A DNA stretch of 42,784 bases from a virus, in IMG/VR virus record IMGVR_UViG_3300045988_017185, one strand, 5' to 3'. Shown here one piece after another: positions 9,172-26,645 of this stretch; the stretch's first letter is position 1, and each line of letters starts with the position of its first letter. The position numbers were made by a program, and so were the translations under genes. The notes beneath the pieces are model-generated. The model was not told where the DNA came from. It did not search any database and saw only the letters and a list, made by a program, of their open reading frames with translations.

Positions 9172-12081
9172 ATGGCAGATACTATTGCTAATTATACAGG
9201 TAATGGTACTCAGACTGACTTTGTAGTTCCTTTTGACTACCTTAAGAAGAGCTTTGTGCATGTGTATGTGAACAATGGATTGACTCTTCTTACAGGTGGT
9301 GACTATGGAGATACCGGTGCTGACTATTATTTCCTAGATGATACTACAATACGCCTTAAGACTGCCCCTGCTGAAGGTGAAGGTATTGTAGTCAGACGTT
9401 ATACTTCAGCTACAGAACGAATAGTCTCCTTTGAGGATGCTTCTATTCTCAAAGCTACAGACCTTGATACGTCTCAACTTCAGGCATTCCATATTGCTGA
9501 AGAAGCTAGAGATAACGTTAAGGATGCTATGTTAAGAGACGATGAGAGTAACTGGGATGCTCAGAATACTCGTATTGTCAATGTAGCTGACCCTGTAGAT
9601 GACCAAGATGCTATGACTCTTGGTTACTATAAGAAAGATAAACAATCCGTCATAGACTTAAAGAATGAAACTAAAGGGTATCGAGACGAAGCTTTAGGTT
9701 TCAGAAATGAAGCTGAAGAATTCAAAGATACTGCTGAAGGTTACAAAAATGAGGCTGAAGAGTCCAAGAATCTAGCTAAAGACTGGGCTGTCAAGATGGA
9801 TGGTAAAGTAGTCGAAGAAGGCGAAGAGATAGACTACTCTGCCAAATATTGGGCACAGTCTGTAGCAGAGATGGGTGAAGCAGCTAAGGTTGTAGCAGAC
9901 AATATTGATGATGTTAATACTGTAGCAGACAATATTGATGATGTCAATAAGGTTGCAGGCGATCTTGAAGGTACCTTTAAGCCTCCTCAATTCACCGATA
10001 TGGGTAGAGTAGGTACAGGTGAAACTGAAGAGATTGAAGTAACTGGTGGTAACATCAAGACTGTAGCAGATAACATTGAAGATGTCAATAAGGTTGCAGA
10101 TGCTATCGAAGATGGTTCTCTACAAACAGCTATAGATTCTGTACCTGTTACTGTTGAAAATGTCAGATTGTCCAATGAGGCTAAAGATGATGCTGTAGCG
10201 GCTTCTAACAAAGCTAAAGACTGGGCCGTTAAGATTGATGGCAAGGTAACTGATGATGCAGGTCTAGAAGTAGATTATAGCTCTAAGTATTATGCCGATC
10301 AAGCTAAAGCTTCTGCTGAAGAGGCCAATGTCTCTGCTGATGTTGTGACTGAAGCTGTGACTGATGGTGTTTCTCAGATCAACGCTTTGTCTCAGCAAAA
10401 GGTAACTGAGATAACCAATGCAGGTACGGAACAAGTAAACAATGTGAATACCGCTGGTACGACTCAGGTTGAAGCTGTGAATACCGCAGGTTCAACTCAG
10501 GTATCTGCTGTAGAAGACGAAGGTGCTTCTCAGGTATCTGCTGTGACTGCTGAAGGGACTAAGCAAAGTGGCCTTGTTACTGCTGAAGGTACCAATCAGA
10601 TTACCTTGGTAGAACAAAAGGGTAACTCTGTAATTGCTACCGTTAATGCTTCTAAAGATGGTCTGATTGAAGAACTTCAAACTGAAGGTACTACTCAGAT
10701 TGGTCTTATAGAAACAGCAGGTACGACTCAGGTTGGTAATGTCAATACAGCAGGTACGACTCAGGTATCCAATGTAAACGATGCAGGGGATACTCAGGTT
10801 CAAGCTGTAAATACCGCAGGTACAACTCAGATTGCCGCTATAGGTACTGCCGCTGAAGAAGCTATAGCAGACCTTGAGCCTTATGTAGAGAAAGCTCAGG
10901 CATGGGCAGAGAAAACAGATGGCCCTGTTGAAGGTGGTTCTTATAGTGCCAAGTATTGGGCTAATCAGGCATCTAGTGGTCAACTTAATGCTGACTGGAA
11001 TGAGACAGATTCTAGCAATAAGGGGTACATTAAGAATAAACCTGATCTTTCTGTCTATGCTGAAAAGACCTATGTCGATAGTGCTTTAAGTAGTGCTTTG
11101 GTTTATCAGGGTTCTGTAAATACGTATGCTGATCTTCCTGTAGCTTCACAGAAAGTAGGCGATATGTACAACGTAGCTCAGGCTGATAGTTCCCACGGTA
11201 TCAAAGCAGGGGACAATGTAGCTTGGAATGGTAGTGCATGGGATGTTCTAGCGGGTGCTGTTGACTTGTCTGCTTACCTGACTAAATCTAGTGCCGCTTC
11301 TACGTATGCTACGATAGATGATCTTGATGCTACAAATAACAGCATTGATACCCTTGAGACTACTGTAGGTACTAAAGCTAATGATTCTGCTGTAGTTAAA
11401 CTTACAGGAAATCAAACAATAGCTGGTACTAAGACCTTTAGTTCTACCATTGCAGGTAATATCAACGGTACTGCTAGGAATGTCACTGAAAGATACACAA
11501 AGACTTCTAGAGGTGACATAGGGTACGGAGAGAATAATAACTACCTGATTGATAAAGCGGCTTTAGCATTTTGGAATGGTCGTTATAGGGGTACGTCAAG
11601 CAATCTAGAATATTGCAGATATGGTACTATTATAGATACAACCAGAGATCAAACTATAGGTGGTACTAAGACATTCTCTGAGACTATCGTAGGTAGTATC
11701 AATGGTAATGCGGCTACAGCAGATAAATTAAAGACAGCTATAACAATCAATGGTACTTCCTTTAATGGTACTGCAAATATCAACATTAACAATATTGTCT
11801 CTAGAGGACAAGTAACTGCACTTAGTGGTTCTACTAGAGGTTCTATTAAGGGTATTCAGCTTTATGAAGCCTACAATAATGGGTATCCTTATTCTTATGG
11901 TAATGTCATCCACATGAGCGGTGCTAGAGAATCTTATAGTGGTGACAATGAAATCATGTTTACTTGGAATGGTACAGATAGAGTATTCATTAGAAGCCTT
12001 AGAGATACTGCGACTTCTGAGTGGACTGAGTGGAGTGAACTACAGGTAGTTAGAACTGATTATGGGAGAGTAGGGAGTTAA
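9172..12081 (+). CDS. tail fibre protein (T7 gp17-like N-terminal adaptor domain, repeat-rich shaft)
   Basis: 969 aa. The N-terminus (YTGNGTQTDFVVPFDYLKKSFVHVYVNN...RRYTSATERIVSFEDASILKATDLD...AEEARD) matches the T7 gp17 tail-attachment domain. Internal repeats include an 11-aa NTAGTTQV unit and three copies of DWAVK.DGKV..DYSAKYWA. Confidence 0.92.
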   Translation: MADTIANYTGNGTQTDFVVPFDYLKKSFVHVYVNNGLTLLTGGDYGDTGADYYFLDDTTIRLKTAPAEGEGIVVRRYTSATERIVSFEDASILKATDLDTSQLQAFHIAEEARDNVKDAMLRDDESNWDAQNTRIVNVADPVDDQDAMTLGYYKKDKQSVIDLKNETKGYRDEALGFRNEAEEFKDTAEGYKNEAEESKNLAKDWAVKMDGKVVEEGEEIDYSAKYWAQSVAEMGEAAKVVADNIDDVNTVADNIDDVNKVAGDLEGTFKPPQFTDMGRVGTGETEEIEVTGGNIKTVADNIEDVNKVADAIEDGSLQTAIDSVPVTVENVRLSNEAKDDAVAASNKAKDWAVKIDGKVTDDAGLEVDYSSKYYADQAKASAEEANVSADVVTEAVTDGVSQINALSQQKVTEITNAGTEQVNNVNTAGTTQVEAVNTAGSTQVSAVEDEGASQVSAVTAEGTKQSGLVTAEGTNQITLVEQKGNSVIATVNASKDGLIEELQTEGTTQIGLIETAGTTQVGNVNTAGTTQVSNVNDAGDTQVQAVNTAGTTQIAAIGTAAEEAIADLEPYVEKAQAWAEKTDGPVEGGSYSAKYWANQASSGQLNADWNETDSSNKGYIKNKPDLSVYAEKTYVDSALSSALVYQGSVNTYADLPVASQKVGDMYNVAQADSSHGIKAGDNVAWNGSAWDVLAGAVDLSAYLTKSSAASTYATIDDLDATNNSIDTLETTVGTKANDSAVVKLTGNQTIAGTKTFSSTIAGNINGTARNVTERYTKTSRGDIGYGENNNYLIDKAALAFWNGRYRGTSSNLEYCRYGTIIDTTRDQTIGGTKTFSETIVGSINGNAATADKLKTAITINGTSFNGTANININNIVSRGQVTALSGSTRGSIKGIQLYEAYNNGYPYSYGNVIHMSGARESYSGDNEIMFTWNGTDRVFIRSLRDTATSEWTEWSELQVVRTDYGRVGS

Positions 12082-12089
12082 TACAAAAG

Positions 12090-12965
12090 ATGGCTGTAAA
12101 TTTAACTAACTTAGACATATCCACAAGATATGCTCTACAAGAAGACTTTGATAACGGTTTTGTAGGAAGGGACAGACAAATCGTTATTCAAACGGATGAT
12201 GCTAAAGGGTATCGTCCAATTATCATGGATGGTAAGACTTCAGGCGGTAAGAACAAGGTTGCCCTTATGGATGACCTTGAAGATTGGAAACCTGCAAGAG
12301 CGACTAGTGCAGATAAGTTGCAGACTGCAAGAACAATTAGAACGAATCTTGCATCTACTTCTACTGCATCCTTTAATGGTACTGCAAATGTAACACCGGG
12401 TGTTCAAGGTATCCTTGGTACTGCTAATGGTGGTACAGGTAATGATGATGGTACGGTTGCTAAATTAACTACAGCTCGTACCTTTATCTGCAACCTAGAG
12501 TCCACTTCTGCGGGTTCTTTCGATGGCTCTGCAAACGTGACATTGGGTGTTTCTGGTGAACTTCCGATTGCTAGAGGCGGTACTGGTCGTACTGATGGGC
12601 ATGCACCTAAAGACATCCTTATGTCAGGCAATAGAGGAAACCTTAACGGCTATGAGAACTCTAGCAATGTGACTTCAGCTAGTCTGACTGTCAACAATAG
12701 TTCTAGAGATTCTATTTGTTGGACTTACTCTGGTGATATGGCTTTGACTATTAGTAACGGTGCGGCTAACCAATCGTGGACTAAGGTTATTGTAATGAAC
12801 AATGCTAATAGTTCTGGTAGCTTGGCGGTAACTGCTGATTCGTCTGAGTTTACTTGGATAACTGATAATGCTACGAGTCTTCCTGCTAAAGCTTTTGTTG
12901 GCATTATGGTTGTTCACTGGTCTAATACTCATGGGTTTATCTCTCTGATGTTTAAGGAGTCTTAA
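12090..12965 (+). CDS. second tail-fibre-like protein (no gp17 adaptor domain)
   Basis: 291 aa with two ~46-aa internal repeats (KL.TART...L.STS.(A/G)SF(N/D)G(T/S)ANVT.GV.G.L....GGTG), a motif type seen in side tail fibres. The same (N/D)G(T/S)AN motif occurs in the C-terminus of the 969-aa fibre. Confidence 0.7.
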   Translation: MAVNLTNLDISTRYALQEDFDNGFVGRDRQIVIQTDDAKGYRPIIMDGKTSGGKNKVALMDDLEDWKPARATSADKLQTARTIRTNLASTSTASFNGTANVTPGVQGILGTANGGTGNDDGTVAKLTTARTFICNLESTSAGSFDGSANVTLGVSGELPIARGGTGRTDGHAPKDILMSGNRGNLNGYENSSNVTSASLTVNNSSRDSICWTYSGDMALTISNGAANQSWTKVIVMNNANSSGSLAVTADSSEFTWITDNATSLPAKAFVGIMVVHWSNTHGFISLMFKES

Positions 12966-12969
12966 TGCC

Positions 12970-13533
12970 ATGATTAAGAAATATACTTATAAAGGAAAAG
13001 AATACACGTCTGTTTACCAATTGAAGAAAGACATTTGGGAACAAGACGGTAAAGCCTTTTCTACTCCTAAGGATGCTTCTGGTTGGGCAATATATGGGGT
13101 GGTCTATCAAGAACTCCCTGACCCTGAGCCAGTAGAACCTTCCTTGGAGGAGGTAAAGCAAACCAAACTAAGTGAACTTGAAAGAAAGTTCCTTAGTTGG
13201 TATGAAAACGACGCTAAGATGATCTCTAGCTTAGGCTATGAGTGTGACTCTGATGCTAGAGCTATGATGGACGTTAATGGTCTGGTTATAGCGGCTGAGT
13301 CTGGAGCTATGACTTATAGTTCTATCTTCATGGATGCCAATAATCAGCCTCATATGGTATCCTTGGAACAACTCAAGACGATACAGCTTGAGATCATTAC
13401 AGCGGGACAATCTGCATATAACGAAAAGTGGACTTATAGAACTGCTATTGAATCTGCTACATCCGTAGAAGAAGTCAAAGGTATCACTATAAGTTTCACT
13501 AAGTGCGACTTTAGTGACAATGACGCATCCTGA
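12970..13533 (+). CDS. hypothetical protein, possibly DUF4376-like (commonly found next to tail fibres)
   Basis: 187-aa ORF with AAGGAG upstream. The C-terminal two thirds (KLSELERKF..WYEN....SSLGYECDSDARAMMDVNGL...) resemble my memory of the DUF4376 pattern. Confidence 0.45.
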   Translation: MIKKYTYKGKEYTSVYQLKKDIWEQDGKAFSTPKDASGWAIYGVVYQELPDPEPVEPSLEEVKQTKLSELERKFLSWYENDAKMISSLGYECDSDARAMMDVNGLVIAAESGAMTYSSIFMDANNQPHMVSLEQLKTIQLEIITAGQSAYNEKWTYRTAIESATSVEEVKGITISFTKCDFSDNDAS

Positions 13534-13765
13534 TTGTTTTCAGGTACTCGTTGCATTAGATCAACTAGTGAATACACTTTTTGGTGGATATGCAGATGAA
13601 ACGGTGTCTAGTCGATCATATAGAGCTTACATTACAGGTAAGCGAAAGTGGACTAGAAATTTAATTAACCTATTATTCTTTTGGCAAGACGATCATTGTA
13701 AGGAGGCGTATGAAAGTGAACTTAATAGGTTACAGTACCCTCCTGAATTTAGAGAGGATGATTAA
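13520..13765 (+). CDS. hypothetical small protein
   Basis: ORF of 81-83 aa (GTG 13514 or ATG 13520) that overlaps the upstream stop. Composition looks coding. No function recognised. Confidence 0.55.
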   Translation: MTHPDCFQVLVALDQLVNTLFGGYADETVSSRSYRAYITGKRKWTRNLINLLFFWQDDHCKEAYESELNRLQYPPEFREDD

Positions 13766-13771
13766 CAAAAG

Positions 13772-14209
13772 ATGCTAAATAAAGACCTAATATTTAGCTT
13801 GATGTCAATAATGGGAGACGAAATGCTATTTCCTGATTGGGCTAATGCTCAAGAGATTCGGTTACGTTCAGACGGTTGGGTTGATGATACCTATACAGTT
13901 ACGCAGGATTCTTTCCTTATAGGGCTATATAGCGAATCAAGCGAAATTAGTCCCGCTGGTGTGAGTATTAACGGAAAGAGGCTATTTAACGATAATTCTG
14001 GTGCAGGATCTCATAACTATTGTCCATGTTTTTATTGTACTAAAGGAACAGTTTTAAAAAATAATAGCAAGACTAACTTTGCATATTTTAACATAATTCC
14101 TTTAGTTAAGTCTGGGGGGGGGCTTAAATACCCTGTAGTCTTCTTTAGGTCTTACCAATTGAATAATATGGTTTGTATCAATAGAATTAAGTTTAAGAAG
14201 AGAGCTTAA
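13772..14209 (+). CDS. hypothetical protein, paralog 1 of a tandem triplet; contains a G9 tract at 14114-14122
   Basis: 145-aa ORF. Shares the N-terminal signature (M.NKDLIFSLMS..GDEMLFPDW), a YTVTQD block and a C.KGT block with the next two ORFs. Confidence 0.65.
   Translation: MLNKDLIFSLMSIMGDEMLFPDWANAQEIRLRSDGWVDDTYTVTQDSFLIGLYSESSEISPAGVSINGKRLFNDNSGAGSHNYCPCFYCTKGTVLKNNSKTNFAYFNIIPLVKSGGGLKYPVVFFRSYQLNNMVCINRIKFKKRA
14114..14122 (+). repeat. G9 homopolymer tract (encodes GGG in paralog 1)
   Basis: Nine consecutive G counted in tctgggggggggctt. Confidence 0.95.
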
Positions 14210-14212
14210 TAT

Positions 14213-14536
14213 ATGTTTGATAAAGACATAATGTTATTCTCATTGGTTGGACTTACAGGAGACGATGATATGCTTTTTCCTGATTTCTCTAGAAAACTAG
14301 CTAATAACGTTTTTAACTATACTGCTACAGAAGATGGTTACCTTGTGGTTAATTATCTTTCAAAATATGAGTCAGGTAGTGTTTCTGTGGATGGTGTTAT
14401 AGTAACAAAAAGGCTAAATATTAATAACTCTTCTACCCTGAGTATCCTATATATGTATGTACCTAAAGGTTCAGTTATAAAGGGAGATGGTGATATGAGA
14501 TTTACAGTATATGGGTTAAAGAAGGGGGGGGGTTAG
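14213..14536 (+). CDS. hypothetical protein, paralog 2 of the tandem triplet; ends in a G9 tract at 14524-14532
   Basis: 107-aa ORF (MFDKDIMLFSL..GDDDMLFPDF...YTATEDGYL...VPKGSV...KKGGG-stop). Confidence 0.65.
   Translation: MFDKDIMLFSLVGLTGDDDMLFPDFSRKLANNVFNYTATEDGYLVVNYLSKYESGSVSVDGVIVTKRLNINNSSTLSILYMYVPKGSVIKGDGDMRFTVYGLKKGGG
14524..14532 (+). repeat. G9 homopolymer tract (encodes the last Gly codons of paralog 2, immediately before TAG)
   Basis: Nine consecutive G counted in aagaaggggggggggttag (a single G after aagaa completes the Lys codon AAG; the nine-G tract follows). Confidence 0.95.
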
Positions 14537-14590
14537 AGTCAGCTCTTATCATATTGTCTCATTCAAAGAAAAATCAAAGAAGGAGAACTT

Positions 14591-14952
14591 ATGTCATTAA
14601 ATAAGGAAATGCTCTTTGGTTTATTATCTTTTGGAGGTGACAATATGAAATGGCCTATAGTGGATAGTACTGGTACTGAGAAAACGAAAATATAGGGCGC
14701 AATACTACATACACACTTGAAAAAGATGTTATGTTGACGTATTGGGGTTTCGATAATTCCAGCAGGCTAAATGCTAATATAACAATAGAATTTCCTGATG
14801 GCTCTAGTATAACTAAAGAATGGAGATATATTCCTAATCTACCTTGTTTATGCCCTAAAGGTACAAAATTCATAACTACTAACGTTAACTATCAGGTTAA
14901 TCTTAGAATAGATTACTATGACATTTTAGGTTATTTATCTTATAACCCTTGA
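14591..14952 (+). pseudogene. paralog 3 of the tandem triplet, split over two reading frames (N-part 14591-14695, C-part open from 14680 to 14952)
   Basis: Strong SD (AAGGAG) before ATG 14591. The N-part reads MSLNKEMLFGLLSFGGDNMKWP. The C-part, in the frame reached by adding one nucleotide, reads YTLEKDVMLTYW...LCPKGTKF and aligns with paralogs 1 and 2. The frames overlap in GAGAAAACGAAAATA. Confidence 0.6.
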
Positions 14953-15093: not shown

Positions 15094-15306
15094 ATGTATT
15101 CTTTTGAACATAAAGATACAGAACATCCTATGAGAGACATGAGGAATATCCTTGAAGATACAGCTCATAGAGCAAAAGAGTGCCTTGAGCATCTTCTGGA
15201 TGAAACTTGTTGAGACTCTCAAGATTTGGATGATGTAAAGGACTGCATAGAAATTCTGTGTGGTATCCGTAAGTTTAACTATATGATGGAACATAAAGGA
15301 GAATAA
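15094..15306 (+). other. 70-codon reading frame interrupted by one in-frame TGA (15211-15213); either a 39-aa ORF, a readthrough product or a pseudogene
   Basis: Translation is MYSFEHKDTEHPMRDMRNILEDTAHRAKECLEHLLDETC-TGA-DSQDLDDVKDCIEILCGIRKFNYMMEHKGE-TAA. Both halves look coding. There is no clear SD. Confidence 0.3.
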
Positions 15307-15308
15307 AA

Positions 15309-16001
15309 ATGGCTGAATATGCGTCTAAAGGTGTAGCAGGTACGGCTCTTGGTTTGGGTATTGCCGGTACTGTTGGACTTGTGAATCAGCTTGGTAACTG
15401 TGGAGGCTGCGGTAATGGTCTCCTTGGTGGTATCTTTGGTGGCAATAACTGTTGTAATCGTGGTGTAGGTGTAGGTGGCATGGCAGAGGTTCAGTATGTC
15501 TCTGCTTTGCAAGCTGAAAATGGTCAACTGAAGGCTGAAAACTACAGCGATCGTACCTCCTTGGAAGCCTATAAGCAGACTGTGGCTGACAATAAGGAAC
15601 TTCGTACTGAAATGTATGCCTTCATTAAACCCTTGTCTGAAGAAGCGGCTAACAACAGAGTGACTATCGCTAGACTTGAAGAGCAAATTAAGTGTGCCGG
15701 TGAAAAGGCTGAACTTCGTGAACAGGTTATCCAAGGTCTGATTCGTGAACAAGGTCAGGCACTTAATGGAAAGATTGATCAAGTTGCTTCTGCTGCCAAG
15801 TGCTGCTGTGAAGCTAATTCAACGGCTATTGCAAGTCTCCAGGCTCTGGTTTGTAAGATTACTCAGACTAGTGTTCCTATTTCTGCTATCTGCCCGCAGC
15901 CGATGCCTCAGTATAACTCTTGGACGGCACCCACGGGTACTCCTACTCAGGTCAATGTGTCTGGCACCGTGAATACTCGTAGTGCTACTTGCGTTGGCTA
16001 A
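15309..16001 (+). CDS. hypothetical Gly/Cys-rich coiled-coil protein (orphan)
   Basis: 230-aa ORF with AAAGGAG SD. It has an N-terminal Gly-zipper-like hydrophobic stretch, CGGCG/NNCC motifs, a central heptad-like region and a Cys-rich C-terminus (KCCCE, LVCK, ICPQP, ATCVG). Arg codons are mostly CGT, as in the capsid gene. Confidence 0.8.
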   Translation: MAEYASKGVAGTALGLGIAGTVGLVNQLGNCGGCGNGLLGGIFGGNNCCNRGVGVGGMAEVQYVSALQAENGQLKAENYSDRTSLEAYKQTVADNKELRTEMYAFIKPLSEEAANNRVTIARLEEQIKCAGEKAELREQVIQGLIREQGQALNGKIDQVASAAKCCCEANSTAIASLQALVCKITQTSVPISAICPQPMPQYNSWTAPTGTPTQVNVSGTVNTRSATCVG

Positions 16002-16034: not shown

Positions 16035-16078
16035 AGCCTAGCTTAGGGATGATCTCTAGGCTAGGCTCTTTGTTTTAT
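16035..16078 (+). terminator. CTAGG-core hairpin followed by a T-rich run (terminator or processing site)
   Basis: AGCCTAGCTTAGGGA / TCTCTAGGCTAGGCT inverted repeat followed by CTTTGTTTTATT. Confidence 0.65.
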
Positions 16079-16089
16079 TGGAGGAGAAT

Positions 16090-16455
16090 ATGTCAGCCTT
16101 GATTAGTCTTAGTAAGTTACAGAACGTTATTCCTGAGTTCATTGATACTCGTCTTATGCCTTCAGCACCTTCTACTATGAAGTGGATTCTTGGAGGTTCT
16201 ACCTTTGTTATCCTGCGTAGAATGGATAGCATTGTCTCTCAGTATCTACCTATGCTGAAGACAGCCGGTATCGTCAATGATAACAATCAGATTGACATTG
16301 AGATGGCTAAAGGTTTTATTAACTCTGCCTTTGAGAAGAGTGGTAGAGTGACTGTGATGAATTTTACGTTTGATAAATCTGATGGTGAAGCATTGATTGG
16401 TATCCTTGAGAAGTACCGTGATACTGAAGAAGGAGTGTCGAATGAAGGTAATTAA
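16090..16455 (+). CDS. hypothetical protein
   Basis: 121-aa ORF from ATG 16090 with GGAGGAG SD. It overlaps the nrdD start by 14 nt. Confidence 0.7.
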   Translation: MSALISLSKLQNVIPEFIDTRLMPSAPSTMKWILGGSTFVILRRMDSIVSQYLPMLKTAGIVNDNNQIDIEMAKGFINSAFEKSGRVTVMNFTFDKSDGEALIGILEKYRDTEEGVSNEGN

Positions 16456-18436
16456 GAGAGATGGTCGTGAAGTAGAATATGATTGGGATAAAGTAGAGTC
16501 AGCTATCGGTAAAGCCTATAAAGCTATAGGTAAAAATATTGACAATCCTGATCTGAATATGGTGAACTGCCTTGTTAATCTCGAAGCAGAACTTACAGAT
16601 ATTGAGTATTTCAATGAAAAGATCAATGTAGAAGAGATTCAGGATATGGTTGAAAGATTCCTGAGTGACTACGGATGCTTTGAGACAGCTAAGGCATTTA
16701 TTCTTTATCGTGAACAACACAGAAAGCAACGTACAGCAGTCCAAGTCAAGGAAGCTATCGAAGAATACATTGGACATGCTGACTGGAGAATTAAGGCCAA
16801 TAGTAATCAGGGATATTCCCTTGGTGGCATGATTCTGAATACTGCCGGTAAGATCACAGCAAACTATTGGCTCAATGAAGTTTATCCTAAAGAGATCGGA
16901 GAGAAGCACCGTGATGGTTCCTATCATATTCACGACTTGGATATGCTCTCTGGTTATTGCTGTGGTCATAGTCTTAGAGCTTTGCTTGAGGAAGGTTTTA
17001 ATGGTATTGTAGGAAAGATTTCGAGTAATCCTCCGAAACATTTCTCTACGGCCTGTGGTCAGATCGTTAATTTCCTTGGATGTCTTCAGAATGAATGGGC
17101 AGGTGCTCAGGCATTCTCTAGCTTTGATACCTATATGGCTCCCTTTGTACGACTTGATAATATGAGCCTTGAGGATATTAAGAGAGAGCTTGAGTCTATG
17201 ATCTTCAGTCTCAATGTGGGTAGCCGGTGGGGTTCTCAATGCCCCTTCACTAACCTTACGTTTGACTGGGTGTGTCCTGAGGATTTGAAGGATAAACATC
17301 CTATTATCGGTGGTGAAGAACAAGAGTTTACTTATGGTGACTTCCAAAAGGAAATGGACATGATTAACAGAGCCTTTATGGAAGTGATGATTGAAGGTGA
17401 CAAGGATGGTAGAGCCTTTACGTTCCCTATTCCTACCTATAATATTACCGATGCTTTTGACTGGGAGCATCCTAACTGTGAGTACCTGTTTAAGATGACT
17501 GCTAAGTATGGTAATCCGTACTTTGCTAACTACTGCAATAGTGAACTGAAGCCTACCGATATTCGTTCTATGTGTTGCAGACTTAGACTTGACCTTAGAG
17601 AACTCCTTAAGCGTGGCAATGGTTTGTTTGGTAGTGCAGAACAAACCGGTAGTATCGGTGTAGTCACAATCAATATGGCTAGACTGGGGTACAAGCATAA
17701 AGGTGACTATGAAGGTTTCTATAAAGAGCTGACTGAACTCCTTGTCTTAGCTAAAGAGAGCCTTGAGATCAAGCGTAAGTTTATCACTAAGATGATGGGT
17801 GAAGGTCTCTATCCGTACACTAGACGTTATCTTGGTACCTTTAGAAACTTCTTCAGTACGATTGGTGTCAATGGTATGAACGAAATGGTTCGTAACTTTA
17901 CGGATGACAAAGAGGATATTACTACTAGTTTTGGTGAACAATGGTGTCTTGAAGTCTTGAACTACATCCGTGAAAAGATGATTGAGTTCCAAGAAGAGAC
18001 TGGAAACCTATACAATCTTGAAGCTACTCCTGCTGAAGGTACGACCTATAGATTCGCTAAGGAAGACATCAAGAGATACCCTGATATTCTCCATGCAGGT
18101 ACAGCAGAGAATCCTTACTATACGAACAGCTCTCAGTTGCCTGTAGGATTCACAGATGACCCCTTTGAGGCTCTTCTGAGACAAGAAGAGATGCAATGTA
18201 TGTACACCGGTGGTACTGTATTGCACCTGTATATTGGTGAACAGATTAGCTCTTGGGAGTCCTGTAGAAACCTTGTAAGAAAGGCTGTGACTAACTTTAA
18301 GTTGCCCTATATTTCTGTTACACCTACATTCTCTATTTGTCCTAAACATGGATACCTAGCAGGTAAACATGACCATTGTCCTTTGTGTGATAAAGAAATC
18401 ATTGAAAAATATAAAGCTAAGGAGTGTTGTAAATGA
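16442..18436 (+). CDS. nrdD: anaerobic ribonucleoside-triphosphate reductase (class III RNR, NrdD) lacking the glycyl-radical C-terminal segment
   Basis: Start MKVIKRDGREVEYDWDKV (ATP-cone) with GAAGGAG SD. The body of ~660 aa looks like NrdD. C-terminal Zn-ribbon-like CPKH...HCPLC. The frame stops before any RVxGY motif. Confidence 0.85.
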   Translation: MKVIKRDGREVEYDWDKVESAIGKAYKAIGKNIDNPDLNMVNCLVNLEAELTDIEYFNEKINVEEIQDMVERFLSDYGCFETAKAFILYREQHRKQRTAVQVKEAIEEYIGHADWRIKANSNQGYSLGGMILNTAGKITANYWLNEVYPKEIGEKHRDGSYHIHDLDMLSGYCCGHSLRALLEEGFNGIVGKISSNPPKHFSTACGQIVNFLGCLQNEWAGAQAFSSFDTYMAPFVRLDNMSLEDIKRELESMIFSLNVGSRWGSQCPFTNLTFDWVCPEDLKDKHPIIGGEEQEFTYGDFQKEMDMINRAFMEVMIEGDKDGRAFTFPIPTYNITDAFDWEHPNCEYLFKMTAKYGNPYFANYCNSELKPTDIRSMCCRLRLDLRELLKRGNGLFGSAEQTGSIGVVTINMARLGYKHKGDYEGFYKELTELLVLAKESLEIKRKFITKMMGEGLYPYTRRYLGTFRNFFSTIGVNGMNEMVRNFTDDKEDITTSFGEQWCLEVLNYIREKMIEFQEETGNLYNLEATPAEGTTYRFAKEDIKRYPDILHAGTAENPYYTNSSQLPVGFTDDPFEALLRQEEMQCMYTGGTVLHLYIGEQISSWESCRNLVRKAVTNFKLPYISVTPTFSICPKHGYLAGKHDHCPLCDKEIIEKYKAKECCK

Positions 18437-18615: not shown

Positions 18616-18814
18616 TGCTGATTGGTGCATGAAGTGTAGGAGCCTCAAGAACACTTTGGATAGACTTGGAGTATCCTATGAAGTTATAGATATATCTAAG
18701 TTATCAGAAGAAGAATATGCCTCAATTCGTGAGCTTCCTACTATTGAATTCAATAATCATAGACTTTCTGGTGAAATACATTTGAAAGCTCTAAAAGAAT
18801 TCTTGGATTTATAA
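18572..18814 (+). CDS. glutaredoxin/NrdH-like redoxin
   Basis: KIYSADWCMKCRSLKNTLDRLGVSYEVIDI...LPTIEF has a CxxC motif and the Grx-fold pattern. Start is ATG 18572 (or GTG 18563). It overlaps the previous ORF. Confidence 0.7.
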   Translation: MNESSLKNQKPKIYSADWCMKCRSLKNTLDRLGVSYEVIDISKLSEEEYASIRELPTIEFNNHRLSGEIHLKALKEFLDL

Positions 18815-18817
18815 AAT

Positions 18818-19099
18818 ATGCTTGTATTAGATGACGAGGATGTCAAGAAGATTGCTGATGGTGTATTGCAGTCTTCTCCTCCTGCTGTAGTCTCTTCATG
18901 TACTCTTCTTGGCTTCCCGTTATCTGATTGGGTTTATATAGCAACAATCATTTATACATTTGTTGGAATCCTTAGTATCATAAAGAGATATTGGGTTGAC
19001 CCCTATCTTAGAGCTAAAAGAAGACTAAGAGAAATAGAAGCGAGGATTAAAAGAGAACATGAGCAACAGAAAAGCAAAGAAAACAACACAAGAACTTGA
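18818..19099 (+). CDS. putative holin (single TM; position of T7 gene 17.5)
   Basis: 93 aa with one hydrophobic helix (WVYIATIIYTFVGILSII) and a highly basic C-terminal tail. It lies directly upstream of the small terminase, as gene 17.5 does in T7. Confidence 0.45.
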   Translation: MLVLDDEDVKKIADGVLQSSPPAVVSSCTLLGFPLSDWVYIATIIYTFVGILSIIKRYWVDPYLRAKRRLREIEARIKREHEQQKSKENNTRT

Positions 19100-21213: not shown

Positions 21214-21247
21214 CTTAAAGTCCCTTATAGAGGTGGTATCTTATTGT
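21214..21247 (+). repeat. 34-bp imperfect direct repeat, copy 1 (CTTAAAGTCCCTTATAGAGGTGGTATCTTATTGT)
   Basis: About 28 of 34 positions match copy 2 at 21301-21334. Confidence 0.85.
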
Positions 21248-21300
21248 TTCCAATGTTCATTGGTGTTGCAATAAGGTGAGTCTCTAGTAGGCTATAGAGA

Positions 21301-21334
21301 CTTAAAGCTCCTTATAGGAGTGGTAACCTATTGT
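21301..21334 (+). repeat. 34-bp imperfect direct repeat, copy 2 (CTTAAAGCTCCTTATAGGAGTGGTAACCTATTGT)
   Basis: See copy 1. Confidence 0.85.
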
Positions 21335-21359
21335 AATACATGAAGGAGAGGGGGCAATA

Positions 21360-21530
21360 ATGATACAAATACTCTTGTCTATCTTTAATAGACTATCGTC
21401 TATCCTAAGGAATCCTAAGGTCGTACATTGGGTGAAACTTGTGGTAGTTGTGGTGTTGTTTGTGATTGCGTTGGTGAATAAAGATGTCGATCAATTACTG
21501 CAAGTTGTAACCCAATTGTGTTTACCATAG
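21360..21530 (+). CDS. hypothetical small membrane protein (56 aa; position of T7 gene 19.5)
   Basis: GAAGGAGAGGGGG SD before the ATG. One TM (WVKLVVVVVLFVIALV). Below the 60-aa cutoff of the ORF track. Confidence 0.45.
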   Translation: MIQILLSIFNRLSSILRNPKVVHWVKLVVVVVLFVIALVNKDVDQLLQVVTQLCLP

Positions 21531-22019: not shown

Positions 22020-22178
22020 TCGAGTCATACAAAAGAACAGTCGTTGATGACTGATCGAATCTCTTAGATAGATGCTCTTTAACAATTCGGGTATTTGCTG
22101 GGCACTTATAGGGCTTATGGTAGCTCTATAGAGATAGACTAAAAGGGTTTGCTATCCGAGTGCATCAGGATAATATAG

Positions 22179-22278
22179 CTAGGGTAGGCCCTAGTTTAAT
22201 TTCTCCTTTCTCCTGGGCTATTTCCCTAGTTTACTAGGGTCTAGCCTAAAGGGTCTTATAAGGGTCTTTTAGGCTAGA
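22179..22278 (+). other. three consecutive CTAGGG/CCCTAG-core hairpins in the early leader
   Basis: CTAGGG-tagg-CCCTAG (22179-22194), CCCTAG-ttta-CTAGGG (22224-22239) and TCTAGCCTAAA...TTTTAGGCTAGA (22240-22278). Possible RNase III-type processing or attenuation sites. Confidence 0.6.
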
Positions 22279-22306
22279 TTATTAGCATACTTTAAAGGAG
22301 AAAAAC

Positions 22307-22770: not shown

Positions 22771-25425
22771 ATGGTTGACTTAAGGAAAGATACAAGTTAT
22801 GAATCTCTTGTGTCTCAATACGGGGAATCTCTTGTTAACCAAGAGATAGACCTAGAGCTTGAGTCTAAGGAAATTGCAAAAGAAAAGTTTTTGCATGATC
22901 TTTATGCTCAGAACAACCCTTCATTAAACAAGCTGAAGGAGAGAAAACAGTCTCAGCTAAAGGGAACTACAGGAACACTTTTAAAGGAGTGCATTCCTGT
23001 CTTTCAACAAGGCTTAGAGAGATACTATAAGGCAGTAGATACAGGCAGACCCGGTAAAAGACACATCATTTGTAGTCTTTTCAGGGAAATGCCAACACAG
23101 TATATTGCCTATGTGTCTCTCAAGGCTATCTTGTCTAGAACAGTCGGAGTTAAGAAAACCATTGTAGGATTGTCGAATCTCTGCAAGGGTATAGGTGCAG
23201 ACATAGAACAAGAGCTGCGCTTTAGTCGTATCTTTAACTCTTTGGAAGACAAGAGAAAGACTCAAGTCAGTCAAGGCTTGTCTAAGCGTATTGGTTTGTC
23301 TTATCGTGAAGCCTTTATGAGGTATATCGAAAAGACAAGCATCGAAGACGGTCTGATAGATGACTGGAAAAAGTGGAGTGAAGAACAAAAAGTTACAGCC
23401 GGTCTTAAACTTGTAGAGATCTTTATAGAATCTACAGGACTTGCTAAACTCCAAAAGACAAGTCAGATCAACACGAAGGGGTATTGCTATCTCTTTGTCT
23501 TCGATCAAATGATGCTTGACTATATCGACCACAATGACGAAATGTTGGCCGATATGTGCTTTAAGTTTAGACCTATGGTAATACCTCCGAAGGACTGGAC
23601 AAGTCCCTATGATGGAGGCTATTACATTAACTTAAAGCGTCAACCCTTGTTAATCAAGGAATCAAAAAAGGAAGTCGCAGACTTTTATAAAGACGTTGAC
23701 ATGCCCAATGTGTATAAGGCTGTCAATGCTATCCAAAAGACTGCGTGGAGAATCAACCGTAGAGTTCTGGACGTAGCTAACGAAATACTTGATTGGAAGG
23801 CTATACCTGAAGCCTTAGGGATTCCATCAGCCGAGCCTGAAGAGAAACCATTAAGACCGGCTGAAGCTGACACCAATGAGGAAGTCGCTAAGGAGTGGCG
23901 TGTGAGAATGACTCACTACTATTCACGTCAAGCAAGCCTTAGGGGTAAAAGAATCCTAGCTAATGCTCTTGTCTCTATGGCAGATTCCTATAAGGACTAT
24001 GAGGCAATCTACTTTCCTCATAACTTAGACTTCAGGGGAAGAGTCTATCCGATGACTACTCTCAGTCCACAAGGATGTGATTTGTCTAAGGGGCTTTTGG
24101 AGTTCTCTGAAGGTATTCCTTTAGGGGAACATGGAGCAACATGGCTAGCCTTTCAAGGAGCTAATTGCTTTGGCCTTGACAAAAAGCCTATGCAAGAGCG
24201 TCTTGAGTGGGTGTATAGCAACTCTGCCATGATTGTCTCCATTGCTCAGAATCCTTTGGAAAACCTTCAATGGGTAGATACAGACTCACCGTGGGAATTC
24301 CTAGCGTTTTGCTTTGAGTGGGCCGATTATCTGGCAAAAGGGGAACTCTTTGTCTCTCACTTGCCTGTAGCCTTTGATGGCTCCTGTAGTGGACTGCAAC
24401 ACTTCTCAGCGATGCTTAAAGACGCTATCGGGGGGAAGGCTGTCAATCTTGTTCCTAGCGATACCGTTCAGGACATTTACAAGATTGTTGCAGACAAGGT
24501 TACAGGGTATCTCAAAGAAGATGCTCATAATGGCTCTCAGGACGCGATAGAGGCTCTTGAGGATGGGGGGCAATACCTTCGTAAGGGTACATCGTCTTTA
24601 GCTCAAGAATGGCTCTCCTACGGCGTTACACGCAAGGTTACTAAGCGTAGCACCATGACGCTGTGTTATGGCTCTAAGCAATATGGGTTTGCCGAGCAAG
24701 TGCTAGAGGATACAATCCTACCGGCCATTGCAAAGAATCCTACAGCATTTTCCAAGCCACAACAGGCAGCTCGATACATGGCTGCTTTGATATGGAAGGC
24801 TCTTGGTGACGTTGTAGTCAAGTCTGTCGAAGCAATGGATTGGCTACAAATTGTCTCTGGCCTATTGGCTACTGATAAGGACTATAAAGGGAATGCTTTA
24901 CCGGTTACTTGGGTAACACCTGCGGGATTCCCTGTCAGACAGAAGTATCAGAAGCCTAAGCTGAAGAACATTAAGACTGTCCTTAATGGCTCTATCACGA
25001 TTATTGAACCTGATGGTGAGAAACAGTTAACTGAAGGCACGGCTTTAAATACATCAGTCCAAGTCGCTGATGGAAACAAGCTTGATACTAGAAAGCAACG
25101 CCAAGGGATTGCACCTAACTTTGTTCACAGTATGGATGCAAGTCACTTGATGCTTACGGTATGTGCCTGCGTTGACAAGGGTATCAATGCGTTTGCAATG
25201 ATTCATGATTCCTATGGTACTCATGCAGGGAAGGCAGACATTCTCTATCAGACTGTTAGGGAAGTGTTTGTCAACACCTACACAGAACATGATGTCCTTC
25301 AGGAGCTACACGATCATGTAGCAAACCAATTGAGACCTTCGACTCTCAAGGATTTGCCTAAGCCTCCGACTAAAGGAGACTTGGACTTGAACCTTGTCTT
25401 ACAGAGTCTTTATGCTTTCTCCTGA
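22771..25425 (+). CDS. single-subunit DNA-directed RNA polymerase (T7 gp1-like)
   Basis: 884 aa (T7 RNAP is 883 aa). Motifs AFDGSCSGLQHFSAM, RKVTKRSTMTLCYGS, IAPNFVHSMDASHL, MIHDSYGTH and a C-terminal YAFS. Confidence 0.97.
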   Translation: MVDLRKDTSYESLVSQYGESLVNQEIDLELESKEIAKEKFLHDLYAQNNPSLNKLKERKQSQLKGTTGTLLKECIPVFQQGLERYYKAVDTGRPGKRHIICSLFREMPTQYIAYVSLKAILSRTVGVKKTIVGLSNLCKGIGADIEQELRFSRIFNSLEDKRKTQVSQGLSKRIGLSYREAFMRYIEKTSIEDGLIDDWKKWSEEQKVTAGLKLVEIFIESTGLAKLQKTSQINTKGYCYLFVFDQMMLDYIDHNDEMLADMCFKFRPMVIPPKDWTSPYDGGYYINLKRQPLLIKESKKEVADFYKDVDMPNVYKAVNAIQKTAWRINRRVLDVANEILDWKAIPEALGIPSAEPEEKPLRPAEADTNEEVAKEWRVRMTHYYSRQASLRGKRILANALVSMADSYKDYEAIYFPHNLDFRGRVYPMTTLSPQGCDLSKGLLEFSEGIPLGEHGATWLAFQGANCFGLDKKPMQERLEWVYSNSAMIVSIAQNPLENLQWVDTDSPWEFLAFCFEWADYLAKGELFVSHLPVAFDGSCSGLQHFSAMLKDAIGGKAVNLVPSDTVQDIYKIVADKVTGYLKEDAHNGSQDAIEALEDGGQYLRKGTSSLAQEWLSYGVTRKVTKRSTMTLCYGSKQYGFAEQVLEDTILPAIAKNPTAFSKPQQAARYMAALIWKALGDVVVKSVEAMDWLQIVSGLLATDKDYKGNALPVTWVTPAGFPVRQKYQKPKLKNIKTVLNGSITIIEPDGEKQLTEGTALNTSVQVADGNKLDTRKQRQGIAPNFVHSMDASHLMLTVCACVDKGINAFAMIHDSYGTHAGKADILYQTVREVFVNTYTEHDVLQELHDHVANQLRPSTLKDLPKPPTKGDLDLNLVLQSLYAFS

Positions 25426-26189: not shown

Positions 26190-26645
26190 ATGACAACTCG
26201 AAGTGCCTGCTATAGCCGTTATGGTAGGCACAACAGATCGACCTATCGGAGTGGGCTTGAGCAGGCAGTAGATGAACTCCTCAAGTCCCATTCTATAGAT
26301 GGGCGATATGAGCAATTTTATATTGACTATGTTGTGCCTGAATCAGAACACAAATATACGCCTGACTTTGTGCTACCTAACGGAATCATTATAGAAACTA
26401 AAGGCGTCTGGGATGCTGAAGACAGAAAGAAACACCTGTTAATTAAAGAACAACATCCTGAATTGGACATTCGTTTTGTCTTTAATAGATCGAAGAGTCC
26501 AATATATAAAGGCTCAAAGACAACTTATGCGTCTTTCTGTGAGAAATATGGATTCAAGTATTCTGACAAAAAGATACCTGAGGAATGGTTTAAGGAGTCT
26601 AAACGTAAATACTCAAAGACTATTCTAAAGGAAAAGAAGAAATAA
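26190..26645 (+). CDS. endonuclease I / Holliday junction resolvase (T7 gp3-like)
   Basis: YRSGLEQAV...HKYTPDFVLPNGIIIETKGVWDAEDRKKHLLIKEQHPELDIRFVF...YKGSKTTYASFCEKYGFKY is nearly collinear with T7 gp3. Confidence 0.95.
   Translation: MTTRSACYSRYGRHNRSTYRSGLEQAVDELLKSHSIDGRYEQFYIDYVVPESEHKYTPDFVLPNGIIIETKGVWDAEDRKKHLLIKEQHPELDIRFVFNRSKSPIYKGSKTTYASFCEKYGFKYSDKKIPEEWFKESKRKYSKTILKEKKK

Follow-up and report, generated by a model that had tools for sequence, protein, structure and literature searches.

Tandem tail-fibre tip-like genes with poly-G tracts and predicted linker hairpins form a putative contingency locus in an uncultured T7-like phage of the human gut

The record IMGVR_UViG_3300045988_017185 of the IMG/VR database, analysed here over its full length of 42,784 nucleotides (nt) and referred to as the window, represents an uncultured human-gut T7-like podophage of 42.8 kb. 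Between tail-fibre genes upstream and lysis and packaging genes downstream, its plus strand carries an array of three small genes at positions 13772-14952, termed A, B and C (Table 1). An earlier note on this DNA, made by inspection of the sequence, had described three tandem paralogs together with homopolymer tracts and a frame break. All of these were recovered: the three genes are found at these coordinates and strand with every one of the motifs that had been quoted, two non-random runs of nine guanines (G9) are present, and gene C has lost a single nucleotide. A and B match each other in BLASTP with an expect value (E) of 5e-12 and 34% identity over 122 residues; the match of C to A is confined to the N-terminal 20 residues (E=6e-5). 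C can be aligned along its whole length in a family profile of 37 sequences, and C-type proteins are recovered by this profile at E 1e-31 to 1e-10. At the level of sequence, the paralogy of A, B and C exceeds what is expected by chance.

In gene A, an 18-residue leader (MLNKDLIFSLMSIMGDE) is joined to a jelly-roll tip domain that extends from Met18 (ATG 13823, with GGGAGA before it) to ...IPLVKSGGG and is followed, in the present G9 phase, by a 28-residue tail (LKYPVV...KFKKRA). Gene B also starts with a leader (MFDKDIMLFSLVGLTGDDD); its tip domain begins at Met20 (ATG 14270) and ends with ...YGLKKGGG at TAG 14534-14536, right behind the tract. Gene C, the terminal unit of the array, is without a poly-G tract. 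It is broken by a 1-nt deletion, one G being absent between 14686 and 14687 in comparison with intact relatives (P0006 with 119 amino acids, P0022 and others). This lesion is probably real and not an artefact, because gene calling on an independent contig of the Joint Genome Institute (JGI) gave the same truncated product (P0039). A second in-frame ATG lies 18-20 codons inside every unit (13823, 14270 and 14645), preceded at 5-8 nt by GGAG(A/G), and gene callers often chose it as the start, as in many proteins beginning with MLFPDW. The second ATG of each unit coincides with the start of the homology to fibre C-terminal domains (FPDW/FPDF), and both leader-bearing and leaderless products are possible.

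Table 1. Features of the array, its upstream neighbours and the tracts of two distant arrays (positions refer to the window unless another contig is named).
Feature	Coordinates	Strand	Details
Gene A	13772..14209	+	145 amino acids; open reading frame (ORF); identical protein P0001 in a JGI contig
Gene B	14213..14536	+	107 amino acids; ORF; BLASTP match to A; homologs P0009, P0014, P0016, P0026 and others
Gene C, first part	14591..14695	+	34 codons (MSLNKEMLFGLLSFGGDNMKWPIVDSTGTEKTKI); ATG 14591, stop TAG 14693-14695
Gene C, second part	14689..14952	+	-1 frame (NIGRNTTYTLEKDVML...YLSYNP); stop TGA 14950-14952
Poly-G tract of A	14114..14122	+	G9, straight after the last beta-strand
Poly-G tract of B	14524..14532	+	G9, straight after the last beta-strand
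Linker-1 hairpin	14138..14263	+	5' arm in A tail/linker; 3' arm formed by B codons 1-17
Linker-2 hairpin	14549..14648	+	5' arm in B-C linker, including AAGGAG; 3' arm formed by C codons 6-19; inverted repeat I1
Fibre with T7 gp17 N-terminal domain	9172-12081		Pfam/PHROGs
Second fibre protein	12090-12965		after the gp17-type fibre
DUF4376 protein	12970-13533		gene separate from A, B and C
Small phrog_3342 protein	13514-13765		immediately 5' of the array
Tract loci in contig L025	808-820, 1166-1177, 1524-1532		array design also carried by L026
Tract loci in contig L027	2510-2518, 2924-2932, 3369-3380		

Scans of A, B and a repaired version of C against Pfam and PHROGs returned no family, with a lone sub-threshold match to Secapin, and no chaperone family (Tfa, gp38, DUF4376 and similar). 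This agrees with the earlier note, in which no known domain had been recognised; the body of the units is nevertheless homologous to the domain that forms the C-terminal tip of tail fibres. In profile comparisons, the domain forms the extreme C-terminus of long remote homologs with Collar or collagen domains or tail-fibre PHROG matches (P0091, P0128, P0136 and similar), and hhalign pairs the family with fibre C-termini at 95.7% and 94.7% probability. Units and fibre tips have in common the motifs FPD[WFY] ... YT.T.D ... [IV][DN]G ... KG[ST] ... [VY].L, and the fibres stop at the position that matches ...PLV/YGL (...VY.L) of the units. The domain is unnamed in Pfam. For residues 19-117 of A, AlphaFold2 returned an eight-stranded jelly roll with a predicted local distance difference test score (pLDDT) of 88.4 and a predicted template-modelling score (pTM) of 0.78; for full-length A, the pLDDT is 69.5, and that of the tail is below 50. 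The structures nearest to the tip domain are generic jelly rolls such as tumour-necrosis-factor-like proteins, cupins and A223 of Sulfolobus turreted icosahedral virus. A search of PDB sequences with the family profile gave nothing meaningful.

A profile search of 5.8 billion proteins yielded 52 clusters, all of them unnamed, metagenomic and located on 42-47 kb contigs, and when 1.84 billion representatives were searched exhaustively with the profile, 136 clusters at 50% identity were obtained, intact tail fibres included. Three large proteins among the remote matches from the representative library (P0056, P0057 and P0127) contain 5-13 tandem tip domains and lack Pfam or PHROG annotation. The scan of IMG/VR found 3 loci. 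Since neither blastn of the region nor tblastn of A and B gave a match among GenBank phages, the array is absent from the cultured and deposited phages of that collection. The A-type body evolves fast, with a nonsynonymous divergence (dN) of 0.215 and a ratio of nonsynonymous to synonymous divergence (dN/dS) of 0.78, compared with 0.008 and 0.08, respectively, for a neighbouring gene; in the family alignment, divergence clusters between the conserved blocks. Judged from these comparisons, each unit encodes a rapidly evolving copy of a tail-fibre tip domain as a protein of its own. The tip proteins probably bind a receptor, because the loops of the domain evolve fast, and they would be expected to be part of the virion.

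The two G9 tracts are the sole runs of G or C of at least 8 nt in the window. Shuffled sequences contain on average 0.37 matches to G8, and the 4 overlapping matches observed were reached in 0 of 100 shuffles. GGG is the rarest glycine codon of the genome (8.6%), the tract occupies an identical codon position in A and B (K-S/K-GGG), and in the broader family, ...PLVK(S)GGG(G) is the ending of many of the small proteins. The excess over shuffles, the rare codon, the shared codon position and these GGG endings show that the tracts are selected at the nucleotide level. In 14 distinct arrays, a tract (G6-G11, some interrupted) is found in every non-terminal unit and in no terminal unit; overall, tract lengths among relatives range from G6 to G13. 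Three identical or near-identical pairs of contigs differ in tract length: L005 and L007 agree over 3484 nt with 0 mismatches and differ solely by G9 versus G8, L005 and L004 show 1 mismatch and a tract indel over 6390 nt, and L025 and L026 have one tract indel and 0 mismatches over 733 nt. The tract is the most mutable site of the region, and the tracts are hypermutable. As they are located at the 3' end of the domain, past its coding sequence, a change in length does not knock out the gene that carries them.

Tract length decides between a few defined protein ends. In gene A, G9 leads to read-through of the 5' arm of the following hairpin up to TAA 14207-14209, 3 nt before the ATG of B. With G8 and G10, the protein would end as KSGGGLNTL and KSGGGA, respectively, in both cases 1-5 codons on and before the helix. 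All of the A-type C-termini (G8, G9 and G10 forms) occur among relatives. In gene B, G9 results in the stop at the TAG immediately behind the tract; in the other two phases the linker is read through (GGGLESALIILSHSKKNQRRRTYVIK or GGVRVSSYHIVSFKEKSKKENLCH) to TAA 14602-14604 or TAA 14598-14600, just past the ATG of C, and both of these read-through tails are present in relatives (P0038, P0044, P0036 and P0046). Across all linker types, read-through frames close at -8, -3, +1, +8, +10 or +14 nt relative to the ATG that follows, and early stops are found 54-88 nt upstream of this ATG. Among clusters at 90% identity, read-through and early-stop C-termini are about equally frequent, and "locked" interrupted tracts exist in both phases.

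Behind every tract, base pairing is predicted between the linker and the opening ~55 nt of the following gene. The linker-1 hairpin encloses the purine-rich ribosome-binding region of B together with ATG 14213 and extends at its base over the internal GGAG before ATG 14270. Its minimum free energy is -45.6 kcal/mol (z=-5.56, a stability reached by none of 200 shuffles); a 45-pair consensus is formed by 8 distinct relatives, and the cognate duplex reaches -40.6 compared with -24.3 for the best non-cognate one. In the linker-2 hairpin (-29.8 kcal/mol, z=-4.68, likewise unmatched in 200 shuffles), the 3' arm contains GGAGG and the internal ATG 14645, and ATG 14591 is placed in an apical stem-loop; the 36-pair consensus of 10 distinct relatives has 98.3% of its cells paired. 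The N-terminal signature that the earlier note had read as a conserved protein block is present, with the qualification that its conservation is partly one of RNA, since the signature pairs with the upstream linker as the 3' arm of a hairpin. The region 5' of the first unit has no comparable structure (z=-0.65), and when the 37 gene starts of the window are ranked by structure, B comes 2nd and C 5th, A being unremarkable.

Such a hairpin is found at every junction of every relative examined (-43 to -58 kcal/mol over 180 nt), and the hairpins also enclose the second in-frame GGAG(A/G) and ATG of the next gene. Three unrelated linker types occur in the lineage, each forming a 36-51-pair helix with its own leader variant. 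In a matrix of duplex energies, the cognate combination of linker and leader is the best in its row at 6 of 8 junctions. In two distant arrays, 3 of 4 family junctions pair with the G-x-D-x-M codons of the leader (z about -3). Comparably stable RNA structures are located elsewhere in the window, at 18811-18940, 21236-21365, 22176-22305, 23006-23135 and 26201-26330 (-48 to -55 kcal/mol per 130 nt); some of them are intergenic and may be processing sites, terminators or elements associated with phage promoters. The start region of the phrog_3342 gene (13424-13574) is likewise unusually structured among gene starts (z=-4.3). A scan against Rfam returned a lone chance match of the hairpin to a miRNA-precursor-like family, far below gathering (E=0.71).

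The relatives, which come from human-gut metagenomes, contain 1-4 units each, drawn from at least 6 body types, in flanks that are ~93% identical, so that no single invariant copy is seen. Bodies cannot be aligned across types, and leaders and inter-unit linkers are near-identical between genomes; as far as sequence can tell, such a pattern fits an exchange of cassettes at conserved junctions. Nearly all relatives have intact ORFs, and arrays of this design are seen again in numerous independent assemblies from different studies and also in distant lineages. The suggestion of the earlier note that this is a locally expanded, fast-diverging contingency or host-interaction array thus gains support from the lack of a described family, copy number, tract polymorphism and the dN/dS values given above. 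Of the outcomes that the note had named as refuting it, neither a well-described family nor one invariant copy free of tracts was obtained.

Further observations concern the arrangement of individual arrays. Distant lineages share the array design with unrelated linkers and tracts of G9-G13, and in L025 a G13 tract stands behind what appears to be the remnant of a lost unit (...ITQGGGG). In L008 (3727-3800), the linker behind a G7 tract is fused straight to a 125-residue gene, the homolog of window positions 16078-16455, and the terminal unit and lysis-region genes have been deleted. P0048 joins a C-type unit, present as its N-terminal half, to the C-terminal half of a 230-residue Gly/Cys-rich protein (window positions 15309-16001).

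A plausible scheme that would connect tract, frame and hairpin is phase-variable translational coupling, in which slippage passes an ON or OFF state down an array of interchangeable tip proteins and the upstream protein is kept active. Each unit would consist of a short conserved leader and a stand-alone jelly-roll tip, with a slippage-prone G tract at the end of the non-terminal units, and the linker could combine with the 5' end of the next gene into a 36-51-bp hairpin that buries both pairs of Shine-Dalgarno (SD) sequence and ATG. The length of the tract would then determine the frame in which the upstream gene is read to its end. Ribosomes in the OFF phase or phases would encounter a stop 1-5 codons past the tract, ahead of the hairpin; those in the ON phase or phases would cross the 5' arm, with termination -8 to +14 nt from the following start. 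Termination near this start may open the hairpin and thus permit initiation or re-initiation. Both the block of initiation by the hairpin and its relief by upstream translation are steps that we infer from the predicted structures and frames. A slip by one base would toggle the next tip gene, and the upstream protein would merely gain or lose a tail of 23-29 residues. Conceivably, a phage population would in this way become a mix of particles with differing sets of tip proteins. In the present genome, the tract of A is set for read-through and B is predicted to be ON; the frame of B closes at its TAG and C is predicted to be OFF, C being additionally inactivated by the 1-nt deletion.

Phase-variable coupling accounts for the position of the tract behind the domain, its restriction to non-terminal units, the frames that lead either to an immediate stop or to the next ATG, and the pairing of unrelated linkers with the next leader. 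That the array is a contingency locus is well supported. The fuller proposition, a phage contingency locus for host recognition that is built as a cascade, is favoured over the rivals below and appears to us evenly poised between right and wrong, and coupling through the hairpins as the specific mechanism is put forward tentatively, with a probability somewhat below even.

The main rival is a switch between protein isoforms only, which we regard as rather unlikely. The tract would here toggle the C-terminal end of its own protein between a short form and one with a basic/hydrophobic tail of 23-29 residues that modulates assembly or activity. The hairpins would represent sites of RNase III-type processing, mRNA-stability elements or homology arms for cassette exchange, and downstream genes would be on at any tract length. 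Several observations speak for this rival and in part also weigh against translational coupling. Given the other strong hairpins of the genome, those of the array may be a general mRNA-processing feature of the phage, as in T7, and cleavage could expose the second SD and ATG of each unit. Linkers are near-invariant and bodies swapped, as expected for recombination arms. Covariation within one linker type is not significant, the sequences being near-invariant and shuffles often scoring equally, so that linker conservation may also reflect recombination homology. In L009/L010, an interrupted tract is locked in the early-stop phase and the downstream gene is intact, which implies that the hairpin is not an absolute block or that the allele is recent. 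Coupling and the wider reading are further weakened by the frames of the linkers, which are open only modestly more often than in shuffled sequences (P about 0.05-0.2 for the individual linker types), by the second junction of L027, which forms few pairs, is weak (z -1.15) and has no long-range pairing, and by the source of the tract-length comparisons, which are assemblies and not reads, so that homopolymer errors are conceivable. Moreover, Foldseek searches with the modelled jelly roll found no significant match to a solved structure in PDB or BFVD (best E about 0.06-0.1, template-modelling score about 0.4-0.5).

An isoform switch alone leaves other features of the array unexplained. Amino-acid conservation of the tails is poor whichever open frame is read (for example, LSHSKKNQ / LSCTKANQ / LSHPKANQ), they were modelled with a pLDDT <50, and a switch of the own protein would not predict that terminal units lack the tract. 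Read-through ends at the next start in every linker type, including the unrelated ones, and the hairpins reach ~55 nt into the downstream ORF over its start sites instead of occupying an intergenic spacer.

Alternatively, the G run could serve programmed recoding, being slippery for the phage RNA polymerase through transcriptional stuttering or, with stimulation by the hairpin, for ribosomes, and a fixed mix of shorter and longer products, with ribosomes partly coupled and partly uncoupled, would arise in each infection. The succession of a long homopolymer and a very stable hairpin is suggestive of such a site, as are the defined and conserved ends in all three frames, and the 12-13 G tracts of the distant arrays should be hard to copy faithfully for any polymerase. 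Yet the length of the tract varies (G6-G13) and differs between otherwise identical genomes, which means that the zero frame is not fixed, and interrupted "locked" alleles occur in both phases. Stimulators of -1 frameshifting usually lie 5-9 nt downstream of the slippery site. Here the spacer between tract and hairpin measures 15-16 nt, and the locus has neither the fixed-length slippery site nor the 5-9 nt spacer of a programmed -1 frameshift. Recoding in place of switching is therefore improbable; it could coexist with switching at the DNA level, where slippage may add heterogeneity and would leave the genomic length polymorphism unexplained.

A similarly low probability is assigned to the view that the proteins are not receptor-binding tips at all and that fibre chaperones or caps, or intracellular accessory proteins with, for example, anti-defence functions, share the jelly-roll fold. 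The units show homology to the fibre terminal domain itself and not to chaperone families, none of which was matched in Pfam or PHROGs, and their fast, loop-focused divergence is typical of receptor-contact domains. In favour of the view that they are not tips are the lack of a significant match to a solved receptor-binding protein and the location of these small proteins after the DUF4376 gene, a region where chaperones often occur. Finally, the notion that nothing is regulated, the array being a set of decaying ORFan paralogs with neutral G relics, assembly errors and hairpins as by-products of repeats, is very improbable and largely refuted: the frameshift in gene C, the premature TGA in the 70-residue ORF described below and the origin of all data from metagenome assemblies would suit it, whereas the recurrence of the design across independent assemblies and distant lineages with unrelated linkers, the 136 clusters with their intact tail fibres, the intact ORFs of nearly all relatives, the use of the rarest Gly codon in the tracts and the cognate-specific hairpins contradict it.

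The surroundings of the array are those of a T7-like phage, as the earlier note had assumed from gene order. Pfam and PHROGs annotation identified a nozzle protein, gp14 and an internal virion protein among the upstream virion genes, and the array directly follows the genes for the gp17-type fibre, the second fibre and the DUF4376 protein. On its 3' side follow genes for a spanin-like protein rich in Gly and Cys, for NrdD, for a T7-family holin and for both terminase subunits, small and large. A T7-type RNA polymerase that shares 41% identity with enzymes of cultured phages is encoded in the genome as well. The host is probably a diderm anaerobe of the gut. NrdD, an anaerobic ribonucleotide reductase with ATP-cone (16397-18436, between the array and the holin and terminase genes), is missing at that position in some of the relatives compared (L003, L011 and L013), in which terminase genes come instead; it is a variable accessory gene. 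Just 3' of the array lies a conserved 70-residue ORF (15094-15306, MYSFEHKDTEHPMRD...) with an in-frame TGA at 15211-15213, where relatives have TGG (Trp). It constitutes a second apparent lesion of this genome, near the frameshifted gene C. Recoding of this TGA was considered and rejected, as gene C and relatives terminate at TGA. Scans for sigma-70 promoters and intrinsic terminators gave nothing beyond chance, and the linker hairpins are the sole inverted repeats in the neighbourhood of the array. No invertase or reverse-transcriptase gene was noted in the annotated parts of the window, for which no systematic search was made.

If correct, phase-variable coupling would represent an undescribed wiring of a contingency locus that is widespread in uncultured phages, as indicated by the number of clusters at 50% identity; a limited literature search found no described case. 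The findings extend poly-G phase variation to an abundant uncultured lineage of T7-like phages of the human gut and to a new, unannotated tail-fibre tip domain, and they suggest a switch that works by way of an RNA hairpin on the gene that follows and not by truncation of its own gene. A single genome could then field several host-recognition variants, with consequences for the prediction of host range from metagenomes and, possibly, for the engineering of phages with switchable tropism. Assemblies collapse the states of such tracts, and gene callers truncated or split the genes in the present case.

Elements of the proposed mechanism are known from other systems. Translational coupling via a structure that sequesters the ribosome-binding site operates constitutively between coat and replicase of phage MS2 and in E. 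coli rpmI-rplT. The in silico picture of the array resembles these cases in that the downstream start is held in a long-range helix with one arm in the upstream frame and termination occurs near the next start; in contrast to them, a hypermutable tract would decide on ribosome access and would render coupling heritable, stochastic and reversible. In paramyxoviruses, mRNA editing at a G run gives rise to P, V and W co-transcriptionally and non-heritably from a fixed genomic tract. There, too, a G run opens alternative C-terminal frames of a single gene, whereas in the array the length of the genomic tract itself varies. Compared with the intergenic hairpins of T7-type RNase III sites, those of the array continue ~55 nt into the downstream ORF. 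The tip of Collar-domain fibres is the same domain (hhalign about 95%), which is here free-standing, comprises about 100 residues, carries a leader of 18-20 residues and is present in several diverged copies.

At the population level, the generation of alternative receptor-binding fibre ends from one genome recalls the tropism-switching cassettes of phages, namely the invertible G segment of Mu and C segment of P1 and the diversity-generating retroelement of the Bordetella phage BPP-1 (PMC10579305). Mu and P1 employ site-specific inversion and BPP-1 mutagenesis by a reverse transcriptase, which differs from the mechanism proposed for the array. Contingency loci of the coliphages T2 and T4, with ON/OFF frameshifts within agt, rIIA and other genes of many functional classes, have been presented in a recent preprint (Gomez, Barrick & Waters 2025, PMC12633550). 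They share with the array simple-sequence repeats in phage genes, reversible frameshifts and heterogeneous progeny; according to the abstract, neither RNA-structure coupling to a downstream gene nor a paralog array is described for them. A further parallel in kind is offered by the hypermutable polyG tracts of Campylobacter phages, which cause phase-variable expression of receptor-binding proteins (Sorensen et al. 2021, as cited in PMC10579305 and PMC12823448). As summarised in the citing articles, poly-G likewise resides in host-recognition genes there, and subpopulations created by slippage act as bet-hedging against receptor variation. The array departs from these Campylobacter myophages by its occurrence in a human-gut T7-like podophage and by another protein family, by a tract past the folded domain, with which the own protein should stay on, and by the tie between the tract and a hairpin over the next start within a tandem array of 1-4 units. 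Taken together, the locus combines an excess of homopolymer, polymorphism between otherwise identical genomes and frame changes with defined products; by these three tested features it belongs with the phage contingency loci, from which it is set apart by the phage lineage, the family of its proteins, the place of the tract and the cascade that is proposed to run through the hairpins.

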